Of a DNA stretch of 64,000 nt, positions 4,501 through 54,886 are shown one piece after another. The DNA is from Nitrosopumilus sp. (GTDB taxonomy: Archaea > Thermoproteota > Nitrososphaeria > Nitrososphaerales > Nitrosopumilaceae), in the NCBI GenBank assembly GCA_965224195.1, contig OZ245040.1, positions 1,664,001 through 1,728,000 of the forward strand, written 5' to 3'. The translations under genes and the position numbers were made by a program. Below the pieces are notes generated by a model. That model was not told the DNA's origin. It saw only the letters and a list, made by a program, of their open reading frames with translations, and ran no database searches. Every line of letters starts with the position of its first letter. The first letter of the stretch is position 1.

Positions 4501-7500
4501 ATGACATATAGTTTCACTACATCTGCATTGTCCCTTGTTGGGATGTCATCAGATATGGATCTAGAGTACCGCTTTACCACATCAACATCATCTGATGTTG
4601 GAGCTTCATCAGCTGGAGATATGGCATATAGTTTCACTACATCTGCATTGTCCCTTGTTGGGATGTTATCAGATATGGATCTAGAGTACCGCTTTACCAC
4701 ATCTGCACCATCTGATGTTGGGATGTCATCAGCTGGAGATATTGCATATAGTTTCACCACATCTGCATTGTCCCTTGTTGGGATGTTATCAGATATGGAT
4801 CTAGAGTACCGCTTTACCACATCTGCACCATCTGATGTTGGGATGTCATCAGCTGGAGATATTGCATATAGTTTCACCACATCTGCATTGTCCCTTGTTG
4901 GGATGTTATCAGATATGGATCTAGAGTACCGCTTTACCACATCTGCACCATCTGATGTTGGGATGTCATCAGCTGGAGATATTGCATATAGTTTCACCAC
5001 ATCTGCACCATCTGATGTTGGGATGTCATCAGCTAGTGATTTGACATATTGTTTGGTTACAGAGATATCATCAGATGTTGGGATGGTGTCAGCTGCTGAG
5101 CTGGCATATAGTTTCACTACATCTGCACCATCTGATGTTGGGATGTCATCAGATATGGATTTGACATATTGTTTGGTTACAGAGATACCATCTGATGTTG
5201 GGATGGTGTCAGATGGAGATATGGCATATAGTTTCACTACATCTGCACCATCTGATGTTGGGATGTCATCAGATATGGATCTAGAGTACCGCTTTACCAC
5301 ATCCGCATCATCTGATGTTGGAGCTTCGTCAGATGGAGATATGGCATATAGTTTCACTACATCTGCATTGTCCCTTGTTGGGATGTTATCAGATATGGAT
5401 CTAGAGTACCGCTTTACCACATCTGCACCATCTGATGTTGGAGCTTCGTCAGCTGGAGATATTGCATATAGTTTCACCACATCTGCATTGTCCCTTGTTG
5501 GGATGTTATCAGATATGGATCTAGAGTACCGCTTTACCACATCTGCACCATCTGATGTTGGGATGTCATCAGCTGGAGATATTGCATATAGTTTCACCAC
5601 ATCTGCATTGTCCTTTGTTGGGATGTTATCAGATATGGATTTGACATATTGTTTGGTTACAGAGATATCATCAGATGTTGGGATGGTGTCAGCTGCTGAG
5701 CTGGCATATAGTTTCACTACATCTGCACCATCTGATGTTGGGATGTCATCAGATATGGATTTGACATATTGTTTGGTTACAGAGATACCATCTGATGTTG
5801 GGATGGTGTCAGCTGCTGAGCTGGCATATAGTTTCACCACATCTGCACCATCTGATGTTGGGATGTCATCAGATATGGATCTAGAGTACCGCTTTACCAC
5901 ATCTGCACCATCTGATGTTGGAGCTTCGTCAGATGGAGATATGGCATATAGTTTCACCACATCTGCATTGTCCCTTGTTGGGATGTTATCAGATATGGAT
6001 CTAGAGTACCGCTTTACCACATCTGCACCATCTGATGTTGGAGCTTCGTCAGCTGGAGATATGGCATATAGTTTCACCACATCTGCACCATCTGATGTTG
6101 GGATGGTGTCAGCTGCAGATATTGCGTACCGCTTTACCACATCCGCATCATCTGATGTTGGGATGGTGTCAGATGGAGATATGGCATATAGTTTCACCAC
6201 ATCTGCATTGTCCTTTGTTGGGATGTTATCAGATATGGATTTGACATATTGTTTGGTTACAGAGATACCATCTGATGTTGGGATGGTGTCAGCTGCTGAG
6301 CTGGCATATAGTTTCACTACATCTGCACCATCTGATGTTGGGATGTCATCAGATATGGATTTGACATATTGTTTGGTTACAGAGATATCATCAGATGTTG
6401 GAGCTTCGTCAGATGGAGATATGGCATATAGTTTCACTACATCTGCATTGTCCCTTGTTGGGATGTTATCAGATATGGATCTAGAGTACCGCTTTACCAC
6501 ATCAACATCATCTGATGTTGGAGCTTCATCAGCTGGAGATATGACATATAGTTTCACTACATCTGCATTGTCCCTTGTTGGGATGTCATCAGATATGGAT
6601 CTAGAGTACCGCTTTACCACATCAACATCATCTGATGTTGGAGCTTCGTCAGATGGAGATATGGCATATAGTTTCACCACATCTGCATTGTCCCTTGTTG
6701 GGATGTTATCAGATATGGATCTAGAGTACCGCTTTACCACATCTGCACCATCTGATGTTGGGATGTCATCAGCTGGAGATATTGCATATAGTTTCACCAC
6801 ATCTGCATTGTCCCTTGTTGGGATGTTATCAGATATGGATCTAGAGTACCGCTTTACCACATCTGCACCATCTGATGTTGGGATGTCATCAGCTGGAGAT
6901 ATTGCATATAGTTTCACCACATCTGCACTGTCCCTTGTTGGGATGTCATCAGATATGGATTTGACATATTGTTTGGTTACAGAGATATCATCAGATGTTG
7001 GGATGGTGTCAGCTGCTGAGCTGGCATATAGTTTCACTACATCTGCACCATCTGATGTTGGGATGTCATCAGATATGGATTTGACATATTGTTTGGTTAC
7101 AGAGATACCATCTGATGTTGGGATGGTGTCAGCTGCTGAGCTGGCATATAGTTTCACTACATCTGCACCATCTGATGTTGGGATGTCATCAGATATGGAT
7201 CTAGAGTACCGCTTTACCACATCTGCACCATCTGATGTTGGAGCTTCGTCAGATGGAGATATGGCATATAGTTTCACTACATCTGCATTGTCCCTTGTTG
7301 GGATGTTATCAGATATGGATCTAGAGTACCGCTTTACCACATCTGCACCATCTGATGTTGGAGCTTCGTCAGCTGGAGATATTGCATATAGTTTCACCAC
7401 ATCTGCATTGTCCCTTGTTGGGATGTCATCAGATATGGATCTAGAGTACCGCTTTACCACATCTGCACCATCTGATGTTGGGATGTCATCAGATATGGAT

Positions 7501-10213
7501 CTAGAGTACCGCTTTACCACATCTGCACCATCTGATGTTGGGATGTCATCAGCTGGAGATATTGCATATAGTTTCACCACATCTGCACTGTCCCTTGTTG
7601 GGATGTCATCAGATATGGATTTGACATATTGTTTGGTTACAGAGATATCATCAGATGTTGGGATGGTGTCAGCTGCTGAGCTGGCATATAGTTTCACTAC
7701 ATCTGCACCATCTGATGTTGGGATGTCATCAGATATGGATTTGACATATTGTTTGGTTACAGAGATACCATCTGATGTTGGGATGGTGTCAGATGGAGAT
7801 ATGGCATATAGTTTCACCACATCTGCACCATCTGATGTTGGGATGTCATCAGATGGAGATATTGCATATAGTTTCACCACATCTGCATTGTCCCTTGTTG
7901 GGATGTTATCAGATATGGATCTAGAGTACCGCTTTACCACATTGACTGCGTCCTTTGATGGAGCTGCATCAGATGGAGATATTGCATATAGTTTCACTAC
8001 ATCTGCACCATCTGATGTTGGGATGGTGTCAGCTGCAGATATTGCGTACCGCTTTACCACATTGACTGCGTCCTTTGATGGAGCTGCATCAGATACCCAT
8101 TGAAGAAGCTCAAAAGGTTGCAGGATCTCCACATCAACTGCGTCCTTTGATGGAGCTGCATCAGATACCCATTGAAGAAGCTCAAAAGGTTGCAGGACCT
8201 CCACATCAACTGCGTCCTTTGATGGAGCTGCATCAGATACCCATTGAAGAAGCTCAAAAGGTTGCAGGACCTCCACATCAACTGCGTCCTTTGATGAAAC
8301 TGCATCAGATACCCATTGAAGAAGCTCAAAAGGTTGCAGGACCTCCACATCAACTGCGTCCTTTGATGGAGCTGCATCAGATACCGAGCTGGTATATAGT
8401 TTTACCACATCCGCATCATCTGATGTTGGAGCTGTATCAGATGGAGATATTGCATGCCGCTTTACCACATCCGCATCATCTGATGTTGGAGCTGTATCAG
8501 ATGGAGATATTGCATACCGCTTTACCACATCCGCATCATCTGATGTTGGAGCTGTATCAGATGTAGACATGGCATGATCACCACTTCGATACAAAACAAC
8601 CAGAGTAGTAGATTCATCATTTAAATTTCCGCTTAGGTCACTAACAGCTCCTGGTGACATGAAAAGATACCTTAAATCATGTAAAATTAATTCAAGTAGT
8701 TGCTTCTTTTTTATTGTGATTGATAAATCCGTACCATTACCAACTTTATTTATCTTAGCCTTGGAAAGTACAACGTCATTACCTTTCCCATCACCCAAAA
8801 ACATTTTTGACAAATCTGTCTTGTCAATATGTATCGGCTCATCAAATTTGATTCCAAGAGTCCTAGTTGTTTTATCTAATTTTACAGGGTATGGCAACTT
8901 GTGAACATCAATTATATATACATCAGTATCAGAATCAGATGATGTAACTATCGCATAAATTTTATCACCAATTTCAAATGTACTGGCTTTTGCCTGATTA
9001 GGAATTGTTGTTACAACACTTACAAGTAATGGTTCATATGGATTACTCACATCAAATGTTGACACAGCATCAGATGCAGTAACTATCGCATAAATTTTAT
9101 CACCAATTTCAGATATATTGACTCCACTTAGATGATTAAAAGAAAGATAATATTCATTATATATCGCGTCTACATGTTTAGGTTTTTTCGGGTTACTCAC
9201 ATCAATTATTGACGCAGCATCATCATCAGATGCAGTAACTATCGCATAAATTTTATCACCAATTTCAAATGTTGCAACTCCGCTTGCACCACCAGTTGCA
9301 GGCGTATAACTGGTTATCTCACGTACTAGTTTAGGTTTTTTCGGGTTACTCACATCAATTATTGACGCAGCATCATCATCAGATGCAGTAACTATCGCAT
9401 AAATTTTATCACCAATTTCAAATGTTGCAACTCCACTTGCGCCACCAAGGCTGTTAAACTTTTTTGGATTAGCAACAAAACTAGCAGGAGGGTTTACTGG
9501 TGTTCGTTCATCTATTGCAGATCCTATATGCTGCAAATCTTTGGGATTAGAAACATCAAATAAATAAATACCGCTTTCACGACCCTCATAACATTGTTTA
9601 GTAATTTGATTACAAGTCCTACTAGGGATACCCTCGTCGTGAACTGAAAATATTGCATACTGTTTAGATTTGATTTTAAAAATATTGACATCAGTGAATT
9701 GTGGGTAAGGGTATACGCCATAATCTATTTCATGCTGCTTGATAATAGTTGGCTTTTTCAGGTTTGTTATATCCACTGTAAATATATTATCTTCATCATT
9801 CAAGCCCGCTAACGCATAGATGTTATTTTCAATATAATAGACTGCAACTACCCCCCCCCCCAAATCACTGTTGTTATTGCCAGGAAACATCATCGTACTA
9901 ACAAACAAAGGGTTCAGAGGATCACTGACATCATAAAAAATCAAAGATTTGCGATTGGTATCTTCTACACCAATATTTGCAGTTAACAAAAGGGCATATG
10001 TTTTCTTGTTTATGTCATCAGTAACTATTGCAACATCATTTACATGCAAAACATTGTGTGATAAAATAATTTCACTAACAAAATCCTCATGCGTTATTAT
10101 GGATGGCTTTTTTATGTCAGTAGAGACTTGGGCGTTTACATCAATTACACCATAACTTAATACGACGACGACGGTAATAAAAAACAGAATTTAATTCTAG
10201 AAAACATAACCAT
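1530..10213 (-). CDS. giant cell-surface protein: signal peptide, LVIVD-like beta-propeller, Ig-like domain, about 100 x 20-aa repeat stalk, PEPT linker, C-terminal TM anchor; 5' end frameshifted
   Basis: ORF 1530-10049 stays open upstream to about 10190 (ILFFITVVVVLSYGVIDVNAQ). One extra T in the T6 tract at 10179-10184 would join it to ATG 10213/10207, giving MVMFSRIKFCFFITVVVVLSYGVIDVNAQ. Blades read FEIGDKIYAIVTASDDDAASIIDVSNP; the protein ends in a TM helix plus KKK. Confidence 0.9.
1635..1860 (-). repeat. 12/18-bp tandem repeats encoding a (TPEP/PVYT) proline-rich linker
   Basis: ggttcaggtgtt and ggttcaggtgtgtataca units. Confidence 0.95.
2500..8570 (-). repeat. 60-bp tandem repeat array (20-aa units such as [20 protein letters not shown]) with higher-order blocks
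   Basis: 60-bp period visible line by line; 66-bp variants at about 8100-8380; block 4081-4500 recurs at 6001-6420. Confidence 0.97.
9851..9861 (-). repeat. G11 homopolymer in the 5' coding region of the giant protein (currently in frame, LGGGV)
   Basis: C11 on the + strand. Confidence 0.9.
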
Positions 10214-19756: not shown

Positions 19757-19846
19757 TTATAATTTTGTATATTAGTAATTTTTGAATTTAATTTCAATTA
19801 GACTAAAGCTAAATTAGAGTGGATATAACAATTGAGCCCATTATTA

Positions 19847-20912
19847 GATGAGTTGTGCAATTAGTCCAATTTGAGTATAATCTCAACATTTTCTAATCAT
19901 AAGATCCAAAGCTAAGGCTGAATTATTTTCAATTCATGTTTAATTGCACAAAACTGGCAAAAAAACCAAAGCAATTCCTGTCAATAGCAGGACTAACTGT
20001 TCCACAATTTGATTCCCTATACAAGGAAATAAAGAAAAATTGCAAAACTGCAGAACAAAAGGGACTGTCCAAAAATAGAGAAAGAGACATTGGTGCAGGA
20101 CACAAGTTTGACTTGTCCTTCAAAGACAGAATTCTAATGTTTTTCATGTACTACAGAATGTACACAACATATGACATGCCAGGGATGATGTTTGATTTGG
20201 ACAAACCAAACGTAATGAGAAACATCGGATGTTTGGAGCCTGCAGTGAAGCAGTCCATATAATTGCTGCCAAAAAATATGCAGACTCAAAAAAGATTAAC
20301 GGCATGCAGGAATTGCAGGAATTCTTTCCGGAATTAGTTGCAATCACTGATGGCACAGAACAGCCCATCCCAAGACCAAAAAACAAAAAGAAAAGAAAGA
20401 CACACCATTCAGGCAAAAAGAAAAAACATGCAGTACAAAATCAAATCGCCATAAATCTTGATGGGATAACAATCCACAAATCTGCACATTCGCCTGGCAG
20501 CCATCATGATTACAGAATTTACAAATCAAAGCATCCAACATTGTCTGAAGGGTTGTCGCAGTCTTATGATCTTGGATATTTGGGGATGGAAAAAGACTTT
20601 CCAGAACAGGCAAGTGTTTTGCCATACAAGAAAAAGAAAGGAAAAAAATTGACTGTTACTCAAAAGGAGTGGAACAAGATGCAGTCAAAAATTAGAATAA
20701 AAGTTGAACATGCTATTGCACAAGTCAGGCAATTTCGGATAAATCGCGATGTGTTTAGAAACAAATTATGCAGATATGATGTGACAAGTGAAATTGTTTG
20801 TGGGACTGTCAATTTCAAGATTAAATGGAAAGAAGAATTCATTACAATTCCATAAAATTAAAAATTAAATGATAGAAAAGTTAGATTTTTGTTTGCAATT
20901 ACGCAACTCATC
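19847..20912 (+). mobile_element. IS5/IS4-like (DDE_Tnp_4) insertion sequence, copy 1; transposase frameshifted near 20257
   Basis: ends gatgagttgtgcaa...ttacgcaactcatc flanked by TA on both sides; ORFs 19936-20262 and 20229-20855; DGTEQPI, DLGYLG, RIKVEHAI. Confidence 0.92.
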
Positions 20913-21207
20913 TAGAAGATTCAACAAAACCTCCCCAAAATTTTCAATAGTAATCTAAGAATTATAATAGTTCTAGGCACAATTTAGAGAATTATAATAG
21001 AATTAAAGCTAAGAAAATTACAAGCAATTTTCACGAGCAACCAATTTCTAATGACTAGAATCGGATCTTCATACAAAATTTTGAAAATTTCTGTAGAAAA
21101 TCAATCATAATTCACTTAGATAAATTTCATATTTTATTCAAAGTATCTAATATTTAGTCTTAAATTAGTGCAAAACTATATAAATTAAAGCATTGTAATA
21201 ATACTAA

Positions 21208-23334
21208 ATGGATATCACTTCAATAAAGCTTCTCAAATCATTAGTTGAAGGACAAAAAGAAACAAACGAATTGATGAGTCTGCTAGGAATAAAGGAAAGA
21301 CGGTTAGCATACATAACAAAAAATCTTGTGGAAGAAGATTACATAGAAAAAGAAAATACAGTAATCAGATTAAAAGAAACACCAAAAGCTATACTGTTTA
21401 GAGATATTACACAGGTTGTAGATGTTGAGAAATTACTTCGTGATTCAAATGAAATAATACTTTCCAACATAGATGTAAACATTACAGTAGATCAATTAAT
21501 AAAAAAATCAGGATTATCAAAGACAACAACCTATAGATCTATTTCAGATTTACAATCCATTGGGTCTGTCCTAAAAAATGAAGATGTGATAAACATTGAT
21601 GAATCAAAAGAACAACTAGTTTTATTTACAAAATTATTAAAAACTGAAAGAGAGAGAAAATATGAAGATGGAAACACCGAAATTATTTATAATAATAACT
21701 CAACAATATTACGAAAAACCCCAAGTGGAAAAGTTGCAAAAGGTGCAACAACAGGATTTACACTATTTTCAGATTATGATATAGAATATCAAACTACGCA
21801 TGATTATTTTTGTGAACAAAAAAATGATTTAGAAATACAAGATGTGTTATTACATGCAGTTTATTCTGCAAATTATTCAAAAAATAAAATGGAATTATTA
21901 ATTGCAATTGTTTTTTATGTAAAACACAAGGACAATATGGATATTCTACAATTACGAAAAAATGCAACAGGGTTAGGAATATCAGAAATTTGGTTAGATA
22001 TTGAAGCTTACATACGTAGAAAACAATTGAAAAATACACATTTATTTTTGCCATGGGATGAATTTCTATCCAAAGCAAAATTATATGATATACCAATTGA
22101 AAAATACACATTACCAAAACCAAGTAATTTATTGTTTAGAGAAATTAGTGATGAGCTAAAAGAATCAAAAACAATATATCTATTTGGTGGAGAAAATATG
22201 AGAATAAAATCATTAAAGGATAGTACAAAAGACTGTGACATAGTAGTAGAAAACAAGGATGATTTTGAACATTTAGCTGAAATTCTTACTAAGATGGAAT
22301 ATGAAAGAAGATTAGAAACAAAGTATTCTGATGAAGATAGAAGAATAAAACCAGATGATATTTTTGAACATGATAAAAAAAGCAGGATTGATCTATTCAC
22401 ATCTACAATAATGCAAGATCTATCGCTATCCTCAACTATGAAAGAAAGAGCAGACATTAGAGATTATGGAAAATTAAAGGTAGGATTACTAAGAAATGAG
22501 GATGTATTTTTACTCAAAGCAATAGCAAATAGAGAAGGAGACATACAAGATATGGCTGCATTAGTCACAGGTAGTCCAAATACACCTCATGAATTACAAC
22601 ATGGCTCTTTTGATTGGGAATTGGTTTGGGAGGAAATTCTAAGACAAGAACACATTAACCACACAAAAGATCTTACAGCAACTATTTTTGATCAAATATC
22701 ATACCTTGCAAAACAAACAGGTATTGTTGCCCCATTTCTAGAAAAACTAAGGAGACATGTCATAGATGTAATGATCAAAAGATTAGTACGTGGTGGCAGT
22801 ATACCAATAAAAGAAATTGTTGAATTGTTGAATGGGGGAGATATTACCGAACCAATGATTCGAAATAGAACTGATGCATTAGAAAAAAGTGAAACAATTC
22901 AGAAATATTCTGTTGGAAGAATAACATATATCAAACTATTAAAAAATAATGAATATTCTGAAAAAGAATTAGAGATTAATACTCATCGTTTTAAAACCTA
23001 TCTTGATTGGCGTTTCGCTATTAGACAAAAACAATCAGATCAAAATATTCAAGAATTTGTAGAAGAACTACAAGATCTAGGATTTCAAACAATTGGAGAA
23101 ATTGATAAAATAATTAGGAATTCTACTGAAATATTAAAGCAATATGAAAATGAGCAGTTTTCAAAACGCCATTTTGATGCAGTTGGTGCAACAAGAATTT
23201 GTGTTGGATTAAACTATTCAGATCTTGGCAAGAAACGTTCATCAGAATATTTCATAAGCCAATTTGAAAAATATAATCATATAGCAAGAGGTAAGTTTAT
23301 TCCTGAATATCCAGTTAAAATGGTGAGAATATGA
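21208..23334 (+). CDS. fused wHTH/AbiEi-like plus Pol-beta-fold nucleotidyltransferase (DUF6036/AbiEii-like) protein
   Basis: two N-terminal HTH regions; FLPWDEF..A..Y; IYLFGGENM...STKDCDIVV; RIDLF; LLKAIANREGDIQD. Confidence 0.85.
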   Translation: MDITSIKLLKSLVEGQKETNELMSLLGIKERRLAYITKNLVEEDYIEKENTVIRLKETPKAILFRDITQVVDVEKLLRDSNEIILSNIDVNITVDQLIKKSGLSKTTTYRSISDLQSIGSVLKNEDVINIDESKEQLVLFTKLLKTERERKYEDGNTEIIYNNNSTILRKTPSGKVAKGATTGFTLFSDYDIEYQTTHDYFCEQKNDLEIQDVLLHAVYSANYSKNKMELLIAIVFYVKHKDNMDILQLRKNATGLGISEIWLDIEAYIRRKQLKNTHLFLPWDEFLSKAKLYDIPIEKYTLPKPSNLLFREISDELKESKTIYLFGGENMRIKSLKDSTKDCDIVVENKDDFEHLAEILTKMEYERRLETKYSDEDRRIKPDDIFEHDKKSRIDLFTSTIMQDLSLSSTMKERADIRDYGKLKVGLLRNEDVFLLKAIANREGDIQDMAALVTGSPNTPHELQHGSFDWELVWEEILRQEHINHTKDLTATIFDQISYLAKQTGIVAPFLEKLRRHVIDVMIKRLVRGGSIPIKEIVELLNGGDITEPMIRNRTDALEKSETIQKYSVGRITYIKLLKNNEYSEKELEINTHRFKTYLDWRFAIRQKQSDQNIQEFVEELQDLGFQTIGEIDKIIRNSTEILKQYENEQFSKRHFDAVGATRICVGLNYSDLGKKRSSEYFISQFEKYNHIARGKFIPEYPVKMVRI

Positions 23335-24218
23335 GTGAAGAAAACGAAATAGATGTTGTAGATGGTGAAAATCCTCTCCTAACAAGAGTAAAAGAGGATT
23401 TAGATGGTGAAAATATTGTAGCATTCTTAGGCCCTCCAAATAGTGGAAAAACTGTTATTGCAACATTACTAAATGATTCAATTTTTACACATTTTCTTGA
23501 AAAATATGAGGAAGAATATGAAGCAAATATGGTAAACGGTTATGAGTTTTTGAAAACTACAAGAAATGTAATGTTAGATGGAAAATTCCCAAGTACAACA
23601 TTACCAGATAATCAAGGTGAAGTCATTTTTGAAATTGTGAGAAAAGGTCCACTTGGTAAGGGAATGCAACTTAGAATTAAAGATATTTCAGGTGAAGATT
23701 ATGAGTCGTTACTAATATCAGGTGATTTAGATGCTGAAAAACGAGTAGAAAGTGTTCTACGACGACATAAAACTAGATCCATGCGTTATGGTCCACTTAG
23801 TTTTATCACAGTTGCCAAGATGTATGTGATAATGATTGATTGTTCTTTATATCAAAAATGGAAACACCTGGACCTTGATTATGCACATCTTGTAAATTCA
23901 TTATTAGATTTTCAAAAAATAGTTAGAGGTAATAGTGAAAAAATAGAAGCGGCAATTGCAATAATTCTAACAAAGACAGATCGTATACCAGATGATGTGA
24001 ATGATTCTGCAAAAGATCTTTTAGCAAAACAAATGCCACAATTTCATAAAACACTGAATATGTTGCATTCAGGTTCTAAAGAATATTTTAAATTAAGTAT
24101 AGACACCAATAGAACAACATCAAATGAGCAAGATCAGACAGGAGTAAAAGTGCCTTGGTCATACAGTAGTGATGAATATAGTCGACTCATAGTTTGGATT
24201 TTAAACAATATTTTATGA
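23331..24218 (+). CDS. TRAFAC-class GTPase (double-GTPase-2-like)
   Basis: G1 GPPNSGKT, G2 FPSTT, G3 DISGE, G4 TKTD; ATGA overlap with the upstream gene. Confidence 0.88.
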   Translation: MSEENEIDVVDGENPLLTRVKEDLDGENIVAFLGPPNSGKTVIATLLNDSIFTHFLEKYEEEYEANMVNGYEFLKTTRNVMLDGKFPSTTLPDNQGEVIFEIVRKGPLGKGMQLRIKDISGEDYESLLISGDLDAEKRVESVLRRHKTRSMRYGPLSFITVAKMYVIMIDCSLYQKWKHLDLDYAHLVNSLLDFQKIVRGNSEKIEAAIAIILTKTDRIPDDVNDSAKDLLAKQMPQFHKTLNMLHSGSKEYFKLSIDTNRTTSNEQDQTGVKVPWSYSSDEYSRLIVWILNNIL

Positions 24219-24224
24219 TAGAAT

Positions 24225-25523
24225 ATGCCAACTTGCGAACATTTTGTATACACTACAGCTAAAACCGATACAAAAACAGGGTATCAAATTGTAGCAAAAA
24301 GTAGTGGTATAAACGATCGAATCTTAAACAATATGATTAGTTATTTCTTTCCACTTGGTGTTGATGCAATGGAATTTACAGAATCAAAATCACTTTTACC
24401 TATAGGAAAGGAGCACATAGCATATTCAATAATAAAAAACATAGGAATTGGGTATGATGGTAGAGATGGAACATTATACAACCATACAATAATTATGAAA
24501 AAAGATGATTTTGCAAAAATTGAATACGATACAAGAATTCTTGACAAATATTTTATTGAAGAATATTCCATAAGAGGAGATCTAGATCAATTATACATAC
24601 AACCAGAAAAAATAGAGATAGATTTTGAATATCTAAAAAAATTAAATGTAGATTTTTTAAGTACGCTTTTATTTTATTTATTTAAAAAAAATAAAGTAGC
24701 TATTCTAAAAATAGTAGATGGGAAACTAATACAAAATATTCTATCAGTTATTCCTCCACAAATTAGATTTATGGCATTTTCTACATTAGTTTTAGAACCA
24801 ACTCGTCAAACAAAATATCAACTAATTCAGATACCAAGTAAAGTACAATCAAAACTTCAAACAAATTATACGAGTATAAATCCTGATGCATTACCAACTT
24901 CAAAAATCAAAATGGCCAAAGACATAGGCATCCAAAACATAATAGAAATGATTAATCAAAATAACCAAAAAGAACTACTTAGACTTCATAAAGATTTTGA
25001 AAAAATTATAACACAAGTATCAAAAAGTAAAAGAATTAAAATTAAAGATATTTTCAACATAGAAGAATTTGAAAATTTAGCTGAAAATAAAAGATTCCAT
25101 ATATTATTAAAAAATGTAAAAAATCTTTATTCCAGTCCTGCTTTTAATCAAGCATCTCCGAGAACCATTCTGACAATTACAAAAAAAATTGGAAAAATTA
25201 TTAAAAAATCTTTAAAATCACATGAAAAGAATAATCTCGATCAATCTGATTTTGAAAAACTGATGTCGGTTTCCAAAATTTTATTGGATTGCTTGAATTA
25301 CATTAATCAACTAAGTGAAAAGAAAATGGGAAACACAATACAACTAGAAATTGAAAATGAAATTGAAAATATAGAACACATATTGAAACAATATCCACAA
25401 ATGGAATCAATGATGCAAGAATATGAATTCAATCCATATAATTATTTCAAAGTCATATGGGAGAATGTTTTGTATTCAGCATACTCTATGGCATTGTTTT
25501 TTCTAGGCCGTAAATGGTGGTAA
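24225..25523 (+). CDS. GAP1-N2/DENN-like GTPase-associated protein with helical C-terminus
   Basis: HFVYTT...GYQIVAKSSGI, GYDGRDGTLYNHTII, ILSVIPPQIRFMAFSTL; hydrophobic C-terminal tail. Confidence 0.75.
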   Translation: MPTCEHFVYTTAKTDTKTGYQIVAKSSGINDRILNNMISYFFPLGVDAMEFTESKSLLPIGKEHIAYSIIKNIGIGYDGRDGTLYNHTIIMKKDDFAKIEYDTRILDKYFIEEYSIRGDLDQLYIQPEKIEIDFEYLKKLNVDFLSTLLFYLFKKNKVAILKIVDGKLIQNILSVIPPQIRFMAFSTLVLEPTRQTKYQLIQIPSKVQSKLQTNYTSINPDALPTSKIKMAKDIGIQNIIEMINQNNQKELLRLHKDFEKIITQVSKSKRIKIKDIFNIEEFENLAENKRFHILLKNVKNLYSSPAFNQASPRTILTITKKIGKIIKKSLKSHEKNNLDQSDFEKLMSVSKILLDCLNYINQLSEKKMGNTIQLEIENEIENIEHILKQYPQMESMMQEYEFNPYNYFKVIWENVLYSAYSMALFFLGRKWW

Positions 25524-27361: not shown

Positions 27362-27664
27362 ATGTCTACAATTCACAAAACAACAGACGCTCGTATTATT
27401 CAATTTCCAATTATGAAGGAAATTGATGCAGATATCAACAAGATTGCTTTTACACTTTCTACAGATATTGAAACACAATACGTAGTGCTATTAGAACAAG
27501 ATGAATCTGGCAGAATCATTGCTACTTGTCCTAAATTACAAGGAGTGGTAGCAGATGGTGCTGATGAAAAAGAAGCTATAGAAAATGTCAGAGATGCAAT
27601 TGACGTGATATTAGAAGATATGGATAATGAAAAAGAGTTTAACATAGTCAGTTATTATCTCTAA
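27362..27664 (+). CDS. hicB: HicB-family antitoxin
   Basis: YVVLLEQDESGRIIATCPKLQGVVADGADEKEAIENVRDAI. Confidence 0.88.
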   Translation: MSTIHKTTDARIIQFPIMKEIDADINKIAFTLSTDIETQYVVLLEQDESGRIIATCPKLQGVVADGADEKEAIENVRDAIDVILEDMDNEKEFNIVSYYL

Positions 27665-27667
27665 AAT

Positions 27668-27916
27668 GTGTCTGATAAGCTTCCAGTTTTAAAATCCTCA
27701 CAATTAATAAAATATTTACAATCGAAAGGATTTGAACTGCAACCTAGGAAAAAGAAAGGAAGAGGAAGTCACATTGTTTTTAGAAATGCAGAAGGAAGAA
27801 GAACTGTAGTTCCTTCTCATGGTGGGAATAATGAAATTGGAGTAGGGTTACTACGGAGTATTTTATTTCAAGCTGGAATAGGAATAGAAGAATTTAAACG
27901 GGATTGGAATGGGTAA
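27668..27916 (+). CDS. hicA: HicA-family toxin
   Basis: LQSKGF...GSHIVF...TVVPSH...IGVGLLRSILFQAGI. Confidence 0.92.
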   Translation: MSDKLPVLKSSQLIKYLQSKGFELQPRKKKGRGSHIVFRNAEGRRTVVPSHGGNNEIGVGLLRSILFQAGIGIEEFKRDWNG

Positions 27917-28441: not shown

Positions 28442-29516
28442 GGCTACTCTGTCGAACAAATCATTTCCAACTAATGATTAATTTCATTTCCCTCAAACAC
28501 TTGCAAACAGATTGTACAGCTCGACTTTTAATTCCAATTCCTTTACCATGTATTTTCTTTTGTGAGCCATGACATACTCACCAGACATCCTTTTGAATGT
28601 TGAAAACACACACTCTACAATCCACCTGTCCCCATAGCTAACGCTGCGCTTCCACAAATCCAAATTATACATTTGAGCCAAAACTGATTTCTTTCGGAGA
28701 TAACATTTTGTTTTGAGAGATGATGTCTTTCTAACTTTGATTGCAGGCAGTGCATTTGTGTTGTGGTACAGATATGAAAAGTTGTTTTCTGAATCATATG
28801 CGCCATCAGCTAGAGCCTTGGTTACATTTCCTTTGTACAATGCTTGTTGTACTAGTTCTGGCAGATGTGCCAGGCATCATGGAATGAATCATCAATTATT
28901 TTCAGTGAAACTATTTTCTTTGATTTCACATCTGCACCAACATGGATTTTCAAGAATCCTCTTCTCATGTGCCATTTCTGTCGCATCCATTCACCTCTGT
29001 CTGCAACTGGTAAATAGACCTTCACCACATAGTGTTTCTAATTGCCATTTCTGTCGCATCCATTCACCTCTGTCTGCAACCTTGATTCCAGTGCTGTCAA
29101 TTGCTAAAATGATTTCATTGTTATCTCCAATGGAATTATCAATTTTGATGTCAAGCTTGTTTATTCTCTTGTGAATTGATGTGAAATCAGGAACTGCTGG
29201 AATTCTATTACAGTATGCACGAATCATTCCTTCTGTTTGTCTGAATGGCAGTCCAAAATATGCTCTGGCATAACCCAATAATTTCATAAACGATTCAGGA
29301 TAGCCTGGACTTTCTACCTCTTTTGTTGTGATTCATGACCTCCAGTTCTTTATGCCAGTTCTCAATGACATCAAATGACATGATGTTCTTCACCCCTTCT
29401 GACTAGTTTTTCATTGTATTGACTCCATTGTACCATGAAAATAATCAGAATGTGAGATCCAAATCTATTGTGGTGTAATGATATTGATCAGATTGTTGTT
29501 TGTTAGACAAAGTACC
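28442..29516 (-). mobile_element. IS5-family (IS903-like) element with a degraded transposase
   Basis: FGLPFRQTEG, AIDSTGIK, RGEWMRQKW, LADGAYDS, RWIVECVFSTFKR in broken frames; ends ggctactctgtcgaacaaa and tttgttagacaaagtacc. Confidence 0.85.
28970..29080. repeat. 38-bp direct repeat flanking a 35-bp unique insert
   Basis: tgccatttctgtcgcatccattcacctctgtctgcaac at 28970-29007 and 29043-29080. Confidence 0.95.
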
Positions 29517-30101: not shown

Positions 30102-30234
30102 CAATACTTGATCAAGAGTTGACTTTATGCAGGTTAATTTATTTTTAATGCATCAATGGAGCTGCAATCGGGAGTGGAACATGAAAACACAAAACACAAA
30201 ATTGTATGATTACGACCCATGAGTTTGGTTAATA

Positions 30235-31300
30235 GATGAGTTGTGCAACTAGTCCAATTTGAGTATAATCTCAACATTTTCTAATCATAAGATCCAAAGC
30301 TAAGACTGAATTATTTTCAATTCATGTTTAATTGCACAAACTGGCAAAAAAACCAAAGCAATTCCTGTCAATAGCAGGACTAACTGTTCCACAGTTTGAT
30401 TCCCTATACAAAGAAATAAAGAAAAATTGCAAAACTGCAGAACAAAAGAGACTATCCAAAAATAGAGAAAGAGACATTGGTGCAGGACACAAGTTTGACT
30501 TGTCCTTCAAAGACAGAATTCTAATGTTTTTCATGTACTACAGAATGTACACAACATATGACATGCCAGGGATGACATTTGATTTGGACAGACCAAACGT
30601 AATGAGAAACATCAGATGTTTGGAGCCTGCAGTGAGGCAGTCCATTGTAATTGCTGCCAAAAAATATGCAGACTCAAAAGAGATTAACGGCATGCAGAAA
30701 TTGCAAGAATTCTTTCCGGAATTAGTTGCAATCACTGATGGCACAGAACAGCCCATCCCAAGACCAAAAAACAAAAAGAAAAGAAAGACACACCATTCAG
30801 GCAAAAAGAAAAAACATGCAGTACAAAATCAAATCGCCATAAATCTTGATGGGATAATAATCCACAAATCTGCACATTCGCCTGGCAGTCATCATGATTA
30901 CAGAATTTACAAATCAAGGCATCCAACATTGTCTGAAGGGTTGCTGCAGTCTTATGATCCTGGATGTTTGGGGATGGAAAAGGACTTTCCAGAACAGGCA
31001 AGTGTTTTGCCATGCAAGAAAAAGAAAGGAAAAAAATTGACTGTTGCTCAAAAGAAGTGGAACAGGATGCAGTCAAAAATTAGAATAAAAGTTGAGCATG
31101 TCATTGCACAAGTCAGGCAATTTCGGATAAATCGCGATGTGTTTAGAAACAAATTATGCAGATATGATGTGACAAGTGAAATTGTTTGTGGGACTGTCAA
31201 TTTCAAGATTAAATGGAAAGAAGAATTCATTACAATTCCATAAAATTAAGAATTAAATGACAGAAAAGTTAGATTTTTGCTTGTAATTACGCAACTCATC
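30235..31300 (+). mobile_element. IS5/IS4-like (DDE_Tnp_4) insertion sequence, copy 2
   Basis: same ends as copy 1, TA flanks, 303-aa ORF 30332-31243. Confidence 0.93.
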
Positions 31301-31467
31301 TATTAAAAAACCCTAAATAGTTATATTGCGTAGAAAAATGTGAAGTCTCATGACAATTGATTATACGACGATAACAGCAAAGGAATTGATTGAAAAAATC
31401 AAAAGTAAAGAAATTGATTCATGTACATATAGTACAATGAAAGAGTTCTATGAGGGATTGAGACAGC

Positions 31468-34490: not shown

Positions 34491-34970
34491 TTATTTTAAA
34501 TTTTCAACAATTTGTTTGTTTTCTTTTAATTCAGACACTACATCCATTACCATTTTTAGATCTAAATTATATTCATTAGCCATATCACTTGGATAAAATA
34601 TTTGACCTACGCTAATTTCTTTTAATATTATCTTTTTCACACTTTCTTTATCTAAATCAAAATTGTCCCCGCTAGTATTTTCTTGCATTTGAATTAAGCC
34701 ATAACTTTCTATCATTTGCTGTGTTTTGTCATTATTTTTTAATACCCTTTCTATCAAATCACGTAATTCAATTCTTAGACACCTAAAGTTATCCAAGTCA
34801 GTGTGTGCAGTGTTTTGAAATTCTTTTTTTATGTATTCCAATGTATGCATATGCTGTTCGTGTACCATTTCAGTTTTATCTGTAGATAATCGTGTCATGT
34901 TTTGTCTGCCATATGTTTCTTCTGGTGTTCCTGGCGTAACTGCAGGGGTCGTAAAAGATAATCGTGTCAT
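34491..34970 (-). CDS. hypothetical protein with C-terminal wHTH; N-terminus extended by 24 aa by a duplication plus insert
   Basis: FYPSDMANEYNLDLKMVMDVVSEL; MTRLS occurs twice. Confidence 0.7.
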   Translation of the reverse strand: MTRLSFTTPAVTPGTPEETYGRQNMTRLSTDKTEMVHEQHMHTLEYIKKEFQNTAHTDLDNFRCLRIELRDLIERVLKNNDKTQQMIESYGLIQMQENTSGDNFDLDKESVKKIILKEISVGQIFYPSDMANEYNLDLKMVMDVVSELKENKQIVENLK

Positions 34971-34991
34971 GTTTTGTCTGCCATATGTTTC
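34884..34991. repeat. 36-bp direct repeat flanking a 36-bp unique insert
   Basis: agataatcgtgtcatgttttgtctgccatatgtttc at 34884-34919 and 34956-34991. Confidence 0.95.
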
Positions 34992-35386: not shown

Positions 35387-35767
35387 TTATTTGATGTCGT
35401 TTATCTCATTTATAATATAAACATGATGATTGAATAAATTAAAAAGTCACATGAATATGCTGTAAAATAAAATCCTTGCGAAACCAACATCATACTAACG
35501 GATTCGGCCTCAATGTATGGGATTGAAATTTCAAGATAAGATACAACTGTAATTACAATTAAGGATAATATTATTGCAGTGCTGTCTTTTTTCTGTATGA
35601 TTTATGATTAATTATTGTACCATATTTTCTAGATCCTCCGTATCGATTATCGTATTTGCCTCCAAACGCACGACCTTTCCAATCCTCTACCTCAAGTCGT
35701 CTAGGTCATCCACATCACAGTTAATACATATTATCCACAACAATATTACTCCCATAACAGATCTCTA

Positions 35768-36833
35768 GATGAGTTGCGTAATTACAAACAAAAATCTAAC
35801 TTTTCTGTCATTTAATTTTTAATTTTATGGAATTGCAATGAATTCTTCTTTCCATTTAATCTTGAAACTGACAGTCCCACAAACAATTTCACTTATCACA
35901 TCATATCTGCATAATTTGTTTCTAAACACATCGCGATTTATCCGAAATTGCCTGATTTGTGCAATGACATGTCCAACTTTTATTCTAATTTTTGACTGCA
36001 TCTTGTTCCACTCCTTTTGAGCAACAGTCAATTTTTTTCCTTTCTTTTTCTTGCATGGCAAAACACTTGCCTGTTCTGGAAAGTCTTTTTCCATCCCCAA
36101 ATATCCAGGATCATAAGACTGCAGCAACCCTTCAGATAATGTTGGATGCTTTGATTTGTAAATTCTGTAATCATGATGACTGCCAGGCGAATGTGCAGAT
36201 TTGTGGATTGTTATCCCATCAGGATTTATGGCGATTTGATTTTGTACTGCATGTTTTTTCTTTTTGCCTGAATGGTGTGTCCTTCTTTTCTTTTTGTTTT
36301 TTGGTCTTGGGATGGGCTGTTCTGTGCCATCAGTGATTGCAACTAATTCCGGAAAGAATTCTTGCAATTCCTGCATGCCGTTAATCTTTTTTGAGTCTGC
36401 ATATTTTTTGGCAGCAATTACAATGGACTGCCTCACTGCAGGCTCCAAACATCTGATGTTTCTCATTACGTTTGGTTTGTCCAAATCAAATGTCATCCCT
36501 GGCATGTCATATGTTGTGTACATTCTGTAGTACATGAAAAACATTAGAATTCTGCCTTTGAAGGACAAGTCAAACTTGTGTCCTGCACCAATGTCTCTTT
36601 CTCTATTTTTGGACAGTCCCTTTTGTTCTGCAGTTTTGCAATTGTTCTTTATTTCCTTGTATAGGGAATCAAATTGTGGAACAGTTAGTCCTGCTATTGG
36701 CAGGAATTGCTTTGGTTTTTTTGCCAGTTTGTGCAATTAAACATGAATTGAAAATAATTCAGCCTTAGCTTTGGATCTTATGATTAGAAAATGTTGAGAT
36801 TATGCTCAAATTGGACTAATTGCACAACTCATC
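35768..36833 (-). mobile_element. IS5/IS4-like (DDE_Tnp_4) insertion sequence, copy 3 (inverted)
   Basis: same ends; ORF 35825-36736; TA on one side only. Confidence 0.93.
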
Positions 36834-37015
36834 TCATCTAAATCAGGTTTTATTCTAGAATAAGGAATAACTCTTTGATCAATATCTAAAATCACTTCTT
36901 GAGATAATGTCGTATGATTTAATATTGCAATATTAGATGTTGCTTTCCATTCACTAAATCCAATTCTTTTCAATACATTTAACACTGTATTAACTACATA
37001 TTCTTCTCGATTCAA
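36834..37015 (-). pseudogene. HicA-like toxin truncated by the IS
   Basis: VLNVLKRIGF...; follows a hicB-like gene; the ORF runs into the IS end. Confidence 0.55.
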
Positions 37016-37402: not shown

Positions 37403-37482
37403 TACACTGGTCAAAACTAGGCGGATTTTCAACTAGTGGTCAATTCGGGTGATAAAGTGGTCAGTTAGGGTGATAAACACTG

Positions 37483-45279: not shown

Positions 45280-45687
45280 GATGAAATTATGGCAATAAAT
45301 ACAATTTATGAATCTTAGAGAATTATTTTATCTTATCCATAATCAAATCACCCTAACTGACCACTTTATCACCCGAATTGACCACTAGTTGAAAATCCGC
45401 CTAGTTTTGACCAGTGTATTATGATATGTTACCACATCAAGAACAAAAAGCTTTGATGGCCATGAGACCTGGAAAAGCCCATACGTATATTGGCTACATC
45501 AACCAATGCATCTGTCTTGGCAAAAAATATAACATTAATGATCTTGCAAATACCAGTACCGCCAAGGTTTGTAAAAGATTATCAGATATACAGCGTCGTG
45601 TTTTTAGAGTATGACAATTAATTGTGTCAACTATGGCGTTGCAAGCGCCAATATTTGATACAATTTTATGAAAGGAGTAATAGTTTC

Positions 45688-46506: not shown

Positions 46507-46613
46507 ACTTGTCCAGTAAGTATTGAGATAATACTGATTGGGCAAGTAAGTATTAGGTTAGTCAGTTTTAGAATACTTATTGGGCAAGTAAGTATTAGGT
46601 TAGTCAGTTTTTA
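46507..46613. promoter_or_regulatory. repeated palindromic operator-like sites (42-bp tandem duplication plus an inverted partial copy)
   Basis: aatactta-N9-taagtatt; units at 46530-46571 and 46572-46613; acttgtccagtaagtatt at 46507-46524. Confidence 0.65.
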
Positions 46614-46960: not shown

Positions 46961-47408
46961 TTAAAGATTTTTTGTAAAAGACAAAGCTAATTGAGCAAAG
47001 CCCAACTTTTTGTAAAACTGGTATGACTCTCGTCTGTTATTTGCAGACTCTAGTCTTATCCTGTGGCATTTCTTCTTTTTGGCAAGTGCAACACAATAGC
47101 TTGCAAGTTTTTTACCAATACCGCAACTATGATATTTCTCAAACACCACTAGTTCTGGGATGTACATCTCCAAAGCTGTATGGTTTAGTCTTGGTAAAAA
47201 CATTGCACTGGCCATTCCTGCAATTTTAATATCACCAATTTCTGCAACAGATATTTTTTTATCAAAAGATGTCAGGTATTTTTTTTATCTTGCTTCTAAA
47301 CATCTCAACATCATAGTCTTTTTGTATTCCTGGTCTTCCCAATTCGTACAGCAACTCCAAGAGTACAGGGTAATCCTTGCTAGTTGCATCTCTAATTGTT
47401 ATCTCCAA
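46961..47408 (-). pseudogene. GNAT acetyltransferase, frameshifted in the A8 tract at 47279-47286
   Basis: IRDATSKD N-terminus; YIPELVV...GIGKKL...FYKKLGF. Confidence 0.8.
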
Positions 47409-49509: not shown

Positions 49510-52500
49510 CTATTTTTTCTTTATTATTTCAAAATAATAAACAATAGCAGCAAACACAGCGACAAAAAATATTATTGAAATTATTAGCAGATCACCAATA
49601 GATACTTTGAGCTCAACAGGCTCTGGCGTTGGTTCAGGTGTGTATACAGGTTCAGGCGTTGGTTCAGGTGTGTATACAGGTTCAGGCGTTGGTTCAGGTG
49701 TGTATACAGATTCAGGTGTTGGTTCAGGTGTGTATACAGGTTCAGGCGTTGGTTCAGGTGTGTATACAGGTTCAGGCGTTGGTTCAGGTGTGTATACAGA
49801 TTCAGGTGTTGGTTCAGGTGTGTATACAGGTTCAGGTGTTGGTTCAGGTGTTGGTTCAGGTGTTGGTTCAGGTGTTGGTTCAGGTGTTGGTTCAGGTGTG
49901 TATACAGGTTCAGGTGTTGGTTCAGGTGTTGGTTCAGGTGTGTATACAGGTTCTGGTGTTGGCTCTGGTATTGGTTCCGGTGTTGGCTCTGGTGCTCTGA
50001 CAGATGATGGCCTGTTGTCCCTGCCGACAATGTCTTTTAACAGTTCATCCAAATTCATATTATCATAATGTACTATGCCAGGCAGTTCCTTCAGTATGAT
50101 GTGGCCATCACAGTATGCCGCAGCAGATTCTACCTGTGCCTGTTTTTGTGATTTGTCGTAACTTTTTATCGACATTACATTTTCAGAAAGCATCTCTAAA
50201 CCCTCAAAGCTAAACGCATATAGAGAGATGGGTACGTGCACGGACTTGAGAAGATCCTTCATGCTGGCCTGGGATGTCACATCAATGCCAACATTGGATG
50301 GATGCCCGTCCAAGACAATGGAGGCGCCAAGGTTGTCCCCATATGTACCTGCAACTAGTACCACATCATTTTCCAGTCCGCACTGGTTGTACAGCAGCAG
50401 CATTGGACTCATTGTAAAACCTACAGAGCCGCTGCTGCCACCACGGTCAGCAGGCTGTGGTGTAGTAGGCTGTGGTGCGATGGGTTTTGGTGCGATAGGT
50501 TTTGGTGCGATAGGTTTTGGTGGCAAGACATCCTCTGGTATTTCTTTAGGAGTGCTGTCAATTACTGCGGTATCTAGTTCAACACTGACTGTATCTTCAA
50601 TGACAATAGGATCCCTTACGACAAGTACTAGGCTGTCATCCTTCTTCACCACATCTGCACCATCTGATGTTGGAATGTCATCAGCTAGTGACTTGGTGTG
50701 CTGCACTGCCGTGCCATCAGGTGTCAAGCTGGTATTCTTTGTTACATCCACGCCGTCTGATGTTGGAATATTGTCAGCCAGTGATTTGACATATTGTTTG
50801 GTTACAGAGATACCATCTGATGTTGGGATAGTATCAGATGGAGATATTGCATACAGTTTCACTACATCAACTGCGTCCTTTGATGGAACTGCATCAGCTG
50901 GAGATATGGCATACAGTTTCACTACATCCGCATTGTCCCTTGTTGGGATAGTATCAGATATGGATCTAGAGTACCGCTTTACCACATCCGCATCATCTGA
51001 TGTTTTGATAATATCAGCTAGAGATTTTACATATTGCTTGGTTACATCCACATCATCAGATGTTGGAATTGTATCAGATATGGATCTAGAGTACCGCTTT
51101 ACCACATCTGCATCATCTGATGTTGGAGCCTCATCAGATGGAGATATGGCATATAGTTTCACTACATCTGCACCATCTGATGTTGGAATATTGTCAGCTA
51201 GTGATTTGACATATTGCTTGGTTACAGAGATACCATCAGATGTTGGAGCTTCATCAGATGGAGATATGGCATATAGTTTCACTACATCTGCACCATCTGA
51301 TGTTGGAATATTGTCAGCTAGTGATTTGACATATTGTTTGGTTACAGAGATACCATCAGATGTTGGAATATTGTCAGCTAGTGATTTGACATATTGTTTG
51401 GTTACAGAGATATCATCGGATGTTGGGATGGTGTCAGATGGAGATATGGCATATAGTTTCACTACATCAACTGCGTCCTTTGATGGAACTGCATCAGATG
51501 GAGATATGGCATATAGTTTCACTACATCCGCATTGTCCCTTGTTGGGATAGTATCAGATATGGATCTAGAGTACCGCTTTACCACATCTGCACCATCTGA
51601 TGTTTTGATGTCATCAGATATGGATTTGACATATTGCTTGGTTACATCCACATCATCAGATGTTGAAATTGTATCAGATATAGATCTAGAGTACCGCTTT
51701 ACCACATCTGCATCATCTGATGTTGGAGCTTCATCAGATGTAGATATGGCATATAGTTTCACTACATCTGCATCATCTGATGTTGGGATGGTGTCAGCTG
51801 CTAAGCTGGCATACAGTTTCGCCACAACCACACCATCAGATGTTAGGATAGTGTCAGATGTAGATATTGCATATAGTTTCGCCACATCCGCATTGTCCCT
51901 TGTTGGGATAGTATCAGATATGGATTTGACATATTGTTTGGTTACAGAGATACCATCAGATGTTGGAGCTTCATCAGATGGAGATATGGCATATAGTTTC
52001 ACTACATCTGCACCATCTGATGTTGGAATATTGTCAGCCAGTGATTTGACATATTGTTTGGTTACAGAGATACCATCAGATGTTGGAGCTTCATCAGATG
52101 GAGATATGGCATACAGTTTCGCCACATCTGCATTGTCCCTTGTTGGGATAGTATCAGATGGAGATATTGCATACAGTTTCGCCACATCTGCATTGTCCCT
52201 TGTTGGGATAGTATCAGATGGAGATATTGCATGCAGTTTCGCCACATCTGCATTGTCCCTTGTTAGAACATCATCAAATGTAGATCTAGAGTACCGCTTT
52301 ACCACATCTGCATCATCTGATGTTGGGATGTTATCAGATGGAGATATTGCATACAGTTTCACTACATCTGCATTGTCCCTTGTTAGAACATCATCAAATG
52401 TAGATCTAAAGTACCACTTTACCACATCTGCATCATCTGATGTTGGGATAGTATCAGATGGAGATATTGCATACAGTTTCACTACATCCGCACCATCTGA

Positions 52501-54774: not shown

Positions 54775-54886
54775 CATGGCACCTCGATTGCATCACTGCC
54801 ATCCATTGCAGCCTGATCAAAATCCTTCAGCCGCATCATCATTTGCTGCATGGCACCTTGATTGCATCACTGCCATCCATTGCAGC
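54775..54886. repeat. 38-bp direct repeat (1 mismatch) flanking a 36-bp unique insert
   Basis: catggcacctYgattgcatcactgccatccattgcagc at 54775-54812 and 54849-54886. Confidence 0.93.

Follow-up and report, generated by a model that had tools for sequence, protein, structure and literature searches.

A spacer-length insert within a 38-nt target duplication in a Nitrosopumilus IS5-family transposase gene, a likely product of off-target CRISPR adaptation

Introduction

During CRISPR adaptation, Cas1-Cas2 integrates spacers of a fixed length, and the repeat between its two attack points becomes duplicated. Spacer integration away from the array is the leading idea for the birth of new CRISPR arrays, and it is a presumed cost of the adaptation module. 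In Escherichia coli with overproduced Cas1-Cas2, chromosomal off-target events were observed, and it was proposed that these seed new arrays (Nivala 2018, as cited in 10.1101/148544 and PMC7054753). The natural cases reported in one of these citing papers stem from two other species and are circumstantial (10.1101/148544). Moreover, off-target acquisition is listed as one of three proposed origins of arrays situated away from cas genes (Shmakov 2020, as cited in PMC13142298). Biochemically, the Cas1-Cas2 complex of Pyrococcus furiosus is described as performing full-site integration at non-CRISPR sites in vitro, with the attack points one repeat length apart on opposite strands; the attacked base is preferably a G, and a loose similarity to the repeat suffices (PMC6698737).

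Here, we describe a scar, S1, in an IS5-family transposase gene of a Nitrosopumilus sp. (GenBank assembly GCA_965224195.1, contig OZ245040.1). The scar lies in a stretch of 64,000 nucleotides that was analysed as a whole and is referred to below as the window; all coordinates are window positions unless another record is named. Two sister scars, S2 and S3, are present in the same window and two further scars in other Nitrosopumilus genomes.

As in the neo-CRISPR units of Nivala, Shipman and Church (2018, from citing papers), a repeat-length duplication of ordinary sequence flanks one spacer-length insert, away from any array. Unlike the units formed in E. coli under overproduction of Cas1-Cas2, the present scars are natural and thaumarchaeal and occur three per 64 kb. 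They resemble the off-site integration described for P. furiosus (PMC6698737) in a spacing within the range of CRISPR repeats, and 4/5 scars have a G at one border. The spacing in that system is 30 bp and the targets were plasmids in vitro, whereas the scars have a spacing of 36-38 bp (once 31 bp) and lie in chromosomes; similarity to a repeat can be scored only with a resident repeat at hand. The scars also resemble isolated or orphan mini CRISPR arrays (Shmakov et al. 2020, as cited in PMC13142298), for which two repeats are the minimum. Unlike the repeats of such arrays, the "repeats" here are mutually unrelated pieces of genes, and we therefore regard the structures as scars and not as working arrays. 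The family-1 casposon, finally, comes from the same archaeal group and, as described in PMC8464041, its Cas1-family integrase leaves a cut-and-fill duplication and integrates short oligonucleotides. In that system the duplication measures 13 bp, the target is a defined one that has a leader and a ruler motif, and the natural cargo is a casposon with terminal inverted repeats (PMC8464041); the scars have duplications of 31-38 bp at unrelated sites and a cargo of 35-36 nt without inverted ends.

Structure of the insertion in the IS5-family transposase gene

The host element is an IS5-family insertion sequence on the minus strand (28445..29514), 1,070 bp long or 997 bp without the scar. Its ends were taken from the alignment to three related copies (L001, L002 and L015); homology with the L001 copy begins and ends at 28445 and 29514, and the terminal inverted repeats are imperfect and ~16 nt long (14/16 by eye). 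The sequence-only reading had named an IS5 transposase as the host gene, and Pfam finds IS5-type domains on the fragments at both sides of the insert: DDE_Tnp_1_5 on fragment 28991-29287 (5.4e-12) and DDE_Tnp_1 on fragment 28493-28840, the 115-aa C-terminal fragment (3.4e-06). A second copy of the scarred element is absent from the 64-kb window. Just upstream of the scarred IS, a HicB-like/HicA toxin-antitoxin pair was observed (27362-27916, plus strand).

In the reading direction of the transposase gene (minus strand), S1 begins with a 38-nt target copy (29043..29080) that starts GTTGCA and is single in related IS copies. It continues with a unique, spacer-like filler of 35 nt (29008..29042; GC 0.34) and ends with a second target copy (28970..29007) that is 38/38 identical to the first. 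The repeat scan of the window places the two copies 73 nt apart from start to start with 100% identity and, together with an exact string match, bears out the earlier observation of two 38-bp copies around a 35-bp insert; the start of the target at GTTGCA on the minus strand was likewise read correctly. The geometry of 38 + 35 + 38 nt is that of a direct target duplication of CRISPR-repeat length around a unique insert, and such a duplication around a unique filler has the shape of cut-and-fill integration, which tandem duplication does not give.

Scripted deletion of one copy together with the filler, followed by minus-strand translation, yields a single open frame across the junction. The peptide with the IS5 motif that this deletion had been said to restore is present in the translation. 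The restored frame stops again ~130 nt downstream. In the alignment to L001, L002 and L015, the transposase gene carries four frame-breaking additions (+1, +1, +73 and +2), of which the +73 addition is S1. The first +1 indel (29380..29396, near 29385, placed by eye) breaks the N-terminal frame and the second (29299..29313, near 29305) changes the frame between ORFs 29295-29393 and 28991-29287, while the +2 indel (28864..28878, near 28870) breaks the frame upstream of the 115-aa C-terminal fragment; all three lie on the minus strand and their positions are approximate. With these lesions, the IS5 copy is a pseudogene that is dead also without the S1 scar, and not an active copy. Hence, only the local ancestral state can be recovered, not a working gene: the earlier claim of a recoverable ancestral state stands for the S1 junction and fails for the gene as a whole.

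Related IS copies carry the target once

Related IS loci were collected by scanning a genome collection with the 115-aa C-terminal fragment as the query. The scan gave 74 loci from other genomes with 61-84% amino acid identity; 72 are titled as Nitrosopumilus or Thaumarchaeota metagenome-assembled genomes (MAGs) and 2 as "bacterium". The 38-nt segment occurs once, and the filler is absent, in 8/8 related copies that were aligned. Placement of both flanks by BLAST extended the comparison to 80 IS copies in 68 of the 74 loci, the remaining 6 giving no usable pair: the flanks lie at offset 0 in 78 copies, at offset 1 in 2 and at offset 73 in none. Since 0/80 related copies have the 73-nt addition, S1 is a derived insertion with target duplication. 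This agrees with the sequence-only reading, which had preferred a 35-bp insertion with target duplication over an ordinary tandem duplication and had named the presence of the insert in intact IS copies as the finding that would speak against it; the insert is absent from all of the copies, whether aligned or placed by BLAST.

Sister scars in the window and in other Nitrosopumilus genomes

With the long tandem-repeat genes excluded, 45,097 nt of the window were scanned for pairs of 32-nt segments with at least 25 matches at offsets of 55-95. The scan returned S1, S2 and S3 (the sisters at offsets 74 and 72, respectively) and one weak AT-rich pair (25/32, offset 94), while each of 20 first-order Markov shuffles returned 0 matches. 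The S1 pair exceeds what chance would give.

Scar S3 (34884..34991, minus strand) consists of two exact 36-nt copies (34884-34919 and 34956-34991; 36/36) and a 36-nt filler (34920-34955; GC 0.53). The target lies where the stop and start codons of two minus-strand ORFs overlap in ATGA. Both ORFs stay open after the 72-nt addition, and the downstream ORF, as listed, gains 24 codons at its front. Among its homologues (11 aligned of 19 found, some of them with 70-73% identity), 10/11 begin opposite residue 25 of the ORF in the window and so lack the 24 scar-derived codons; the annotated start of the remaining homologue lies even further in.

Scar S2 (54775..54886, minus strand) has 38-nt copies at 54775-54812 and 54849-54886 (37/38) around a 36-nt filler (54813-54848; GC 0.44). 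It sits in a degraded minus-strand gene, also classed in our analysis as a surface-protein pseudogene. The single informative homologue, P0028, was recovered by a profile-free search with a 53-aa fragment and has the duplicated peptide once, contiguous with both flanks; it aligns to the pre-scar fragment at residues 151-188 and to the post-scar fragment at residues 178-203. Five fragments of the S2 gene gave no Pfam match, and a word-indexed search returned no longer homologues of the 126-aa fragment. A public 66-aa ORF call, P0020 (54654-54851, minus strand), has its start within S2 and matches the window at 100% identity; the scar has in this case been annotated by gene callers as the start of a protein.

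These protein homologues show that S2 and S3 both have a single-copy state. The sequences duplicated in S1, S2 and S3 are mutually unrelated, being a piece of a transposase gene, a piece of a surface-protein pseudogene and a gene junction, respectively.

Outside the window, 1.43 Mb of fetched loci (overlaps not removed) were searched, and two scars were found in two other Nitrosopumilus genomes. One (positions 9160-9268 of locus L006, from OZ242186.1) has a 37-nt duplication and a 35-nt filler and splits a tRNA-Phe gene that lies outside the IS. The other (positions 6246-6343 of locus L016, from OZ244732.1) has a 31-nt duplication and a 36-nt filler at the 3' end of a Metallophos gene, the frame of which is shifted. 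In the former locus, the scar separates the 5' part of the tRNA-Phe(GAA) gene from its 3' part (9130-9273); ARAGORN still calls a tRNA, with five filler bases serving as its 5' end, and a further anticodon-arm fragment is located ~40 nt away. No scar was found in 45 loci of genome CBDFGF01 (~900 kb before removing overlaps).

In the order S1, S2, S3, L006 and L016, the fillers are 35, 36, 36, 35 and 36 nt long and the duplications 38, 38, 36, 37 and 31 nt. The filler length is accordingly 35-36 nt at 5/5 sites, and the duplication length 36-38 nt at 4/5. The window makes up 4.3% of the DNA scanned and holds 3/5 of the scars (P = 7e-4, or 0.01 given that one was known beforehand). The scarring event is recurrent and recent, and its empty sites are recoverable.

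Fillers and target borders

The five fillers have no sequence and no termini in common in either orientation, and none has inverted termini. Since nothing is shared between them, they do not represent one mobile element. The GC contents of the window fillers (0.34, 0.44 and 0.53 in S1, S2 and S3) compare with a window mean of 0.36. Searches for their origin found nothing above chance within the window (blastn-short, and gapped local alignment against shuffled fillers) or in the 1.43 Mb of related loci (blastn-short; best 15 nt exact or 17/18), and no significant match among 50,697 phage records (best E 0.4). A BLAST of the insert had been proposed together with the first description of S1, and the S1 filler has no match in the window, in the related loci or in the phage collection. 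Spacers are usually without a database match. On their sequences, the fillers resemble foreign fragments that are unrelated to one another and trimmed to a single length. An 11-nt match between the L006 filler and a pair of 72-nt inverted repeats in the window (37.4 and 45.4 kb; see below) covered 16-17/35 bases and was dropped as chance.

No convincing motif is shared by the five target sites in any of the 16 orientation combinations. The 5' ends of the duplicated segments have a G at 5/10 bases, with 0.177 expected (P = 0.02; five sites), and a G is present at one border in 4/5 sites. Taken together with the preference of the Pyrococcus enzyme for G, the 5/10 border Gs give some meaning to the start of the S1 target at GTTGCA.

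Search for cas genes and CRISPR arrays

Pfam searches of 38 window ORFs of at least 58 aa and of 17 small ORFs revealed no cas genes, and no casposon genes were found by Pfam on the window ORFs. Repeat scans detected no CRISPR array in the window or in the 1.43 Mb of loci. The window has 0 Rfam matches and no RNA families or tRNAs were found in it. Likewise, no cas gene was detected when 148 ORFs were scanned in seven loci that belong to the L006 and L016 genomes, a sample of <5% of those genomes. Each window scar has two copies only, while a canonical CRISPR array has at least three near-identical repeats, which are separated by variable spacers and shared between arrays.

Free-living Nitrosopumilales are listed as mostly without CRISPR spacers (PMC6563490, supplement 2), and both CRISPR arrays and cas genes have been reported from host- or sponge-associated Nitrosopumilus genomes (MAGs; PMC6697440 and PMC9289680). 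With its high density of transposases and defence-type genes, the window fits the sponge-associated type of Nitrosopumilus genome, which is context and not proof.

Origin of the scars

The two fixed lengths, 35-36 nt for the filler and mostly 36-38 nt for the stagger, point to an integrase with two rulers. Both lengths are within the range of CRISPR spacers and repeats, respectively. To our knowledge, the sole integrase with such a signature is Cas1-Cas2 acting off-target. We therefore consider S1 to be, with somewhat better than even probability, the product of off-target CRISPR spacer integration, i.e., a one-spacer neo-CRISPR unit. In this model, the Cas1-Cas2 adaptation complex would carry a prespacer of about 35-36 bp and attack two phosphodiester bonds ~37 bp apart on opposite strands, with the IS5 transposase gene taking the place of the CRISPR repeat borders. 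Gap filling would then duplicate the 38 bp between the attack points and generate the order target-filler-target. The 73-nt addition shifts the frame of a transposase gene that has further breaks elsewhere, and the same enzyme would have hit at least two other places in the 64-kb stretch.

Since no cas gene was seen, the enzyme is what we infer; what was observed are the structure, the derived state, the recurrence at fixed geometry and the unrelated, unmatched fillers. Several data weigh against Cas1-Cas2. No cas gene or CRISPR array is present in the window or the fetched loci, and the scarcity of CRISPR spacers reported for free-living Nitrosopumilales (see above) points the same way. There is no protospacer or PAM for any filler in the window, the loci or the phage records, and no convincing target motif across the five sites. 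Moreover, one duplication is 31 nt, outside the 36-38 nt range, and three events per 64 kb is far denser than expected of rare off-target integration.

A broader possibility, which we put forward tentatively and think somewhat doubtful, is that the spacer-integrating enzyme of this lineage has largely lost its aim. It would be either a Cas1-Cas2 that lacks a usable leader and array or a Cas1-family integrase of a new kind that never had an array, and it would scatter 35-36-nt foreign fragments chromosome-wide.

Duplications with filler arise in break repair in many organisms. An error of replication or repair, by template switching or by end joining at a staggered break, could hence give a short duplication with a filler without any dedicated integrase. 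The targets are unrelated and mostly dispensable DNA, and no integrase was identified, as this explanation would expect. Random repair would not, however, hold the filler at 35-36 nt in five independent events and the duplication at 36-38 nt in 4/5. The fillers are also not templated nearby, the local alignment scores being within the range of shuffled fillers, and no duplication plus filler of another size was detected at offsets 55-95 in 45 kb. These data make a repair error unlikely.

Another two-ruler integrase with a ~37-bp stagger and no CRISPR array of its own could be a solo Cas1, a casposase-type enzyme or an unknown enzyme. The absence of an array or a cas operon from the window and the loci scanned suits such an enzyme, and its presence is plausible in archaea of this group. 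In addition, homologues of the family-1 casposon Cas1 are reported to be common in Nitrosopumilus and Nitrosarchaeum, even in strains without CRISPR-Cas (PMC12097351 and the supplement of PMC6563490), and the N. koreensis casposase is described as integrating oligonucleotides from 7 nt to ~4 kb (PMC8464041). This wide cargo range would not, however, yield fillers of 35-36 nt every time, and casposon genes are absent from the window. The duplication left by the family-1 enzyme is 13 bp long and its site is a specific one (PMC8464041), in contrast to the 31-38 bp at unrelated sites seen here, and on this ground a casposase was set aside as the agent; a casposon insertion would have a duplication of 13-15 bp and a cargo with inverted ends, compared with the duplications of 31-38 nt and fillers without inverted termini observed here. 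Taken as a whole, an integrase of this other kind is quite improbable.

Unusually long target duplications are attributed to some IS groups, and transposases are densely packed in the window (IS1595, IS6/IS240-like, three DDE_Tnp_4 copies and IS5), so that the scars could be excision footprints of a mobile element that left its two tips behind. The footprints of one element would share termini, and the five fillers share none in either orientation, nor does any of them match an IS end or anything else in the window or the loci; this origin is very improbable.

An assembly or sequencing artefact, for which one could invoke that the related records are metagenome-assembled genomes and that the small indels of the window IS copy could be consensus errors, is equally hard to credit, because the fillers all differ and match no adapter-like repeat, the same geometry recurs in two other assemblies, the 100% match of P0020, which starts inside S2, places the sequence in the public record, and none of the assembly errors known to us would place two copies of 38 nt on either side of 35 unrelated bases.

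Implications of off-target integration in a natural genome

Under the preferred explanation, integration by Cas1-Cas2 away from its array, S1 is a natural case of an already known kind of event, the likely cause of which is off-target CRISPR adaptation. The literature consulted, in which the key papers on the phenomenon are represented by papers that cite them, contained no report of such scars in Thaumarchaeota. Direct evidence for off-target integration comes, as presented in those citing papers, from the overproducing E. coli strains discussed above, and the natural cases are circumstantial only (10.1101/148544 and PMC7054753). Several fresh scars with exact borders and recoverable empty sites in one natural genome would permit target preference, ruler precision and mutational cost to be measured. 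The cost includes here a transposase gene and a surface-protein gene, to which the relatives add a tRNA gene and a gene for a phosphoesterase. Such a genome would also give the first view of adaptation activity in archaea of the Nitrosopumilus type, the free-living strains of which are mostly without CRISPR according to PMC6563490 (supplement 2).

If the integrase has indeed lost its aim, the reading that we regard as tentative, it would act as a natural, gene-breaking insertional mutagen and as a continuous source of proto-arrays for new CRISPR loci. At three scars per 64 kb, the genome could then hold dozens of dated, sequence-tagged integration events.

Other features of the window

A perfect pair of 72-nt inverted repeats (37403-37474 and 45347-45418), the arms of which end in two 21-nt tandem sub-repeats, brackets a segment of 8,016 bp without an obvious target duplication. 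The segment encodes an SNF2-type helicase, an Mrr-type nuclease, two unassigned ORFs, an MT-A70 methyltransferase and an IS6/IS240-like transposase, and it has the look of a defence cassette carried by a transposon. A 1.07-kb IS with a DDE_Tnp_4 transposase is present in three copies, at 19841-20914 (+), 30229-31302 (+) and 35766-36834 (-), with a mutual identity of 96.6-97.2%; for the copy at 19.8 kb, only a 208-aa ORF is listed.

Three giant minus-strand ORFs (1530-10049, 49510-54477 and 58833-63998; 2,839, 1,655 and at least 1,720 aa) contain tandem repeats of 60/120 nt, 141 nt and ~156/312 nt and have a GC content of 0.43-0.46, above that of the rest of the window. They probably encode surface proteins, and the 141-nt unit seems, by eye, to resemble a beta-propeller (NHL-type) repeat. 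On the plus strand, a three-gene block (21208-25523) encodes a 708-aa protein with weak helix-turn-helix (HTH) and nucleotidyltransferase matches, a DO-GTPase1/2 protein and a GAP1-N2 protein; from its gene content, it is predicted to be a locus of the GTPase-centred conflict-system type. The 4-kb stretch at 44.8-49.0 kb is almost without recognisable genes, a GNAT acetyltransferase fragment (46964-47284) being the only one recognised. Within the same stretch, a 42-nt unit is repeated twice head to tail (46530-46611) with 97% matches.
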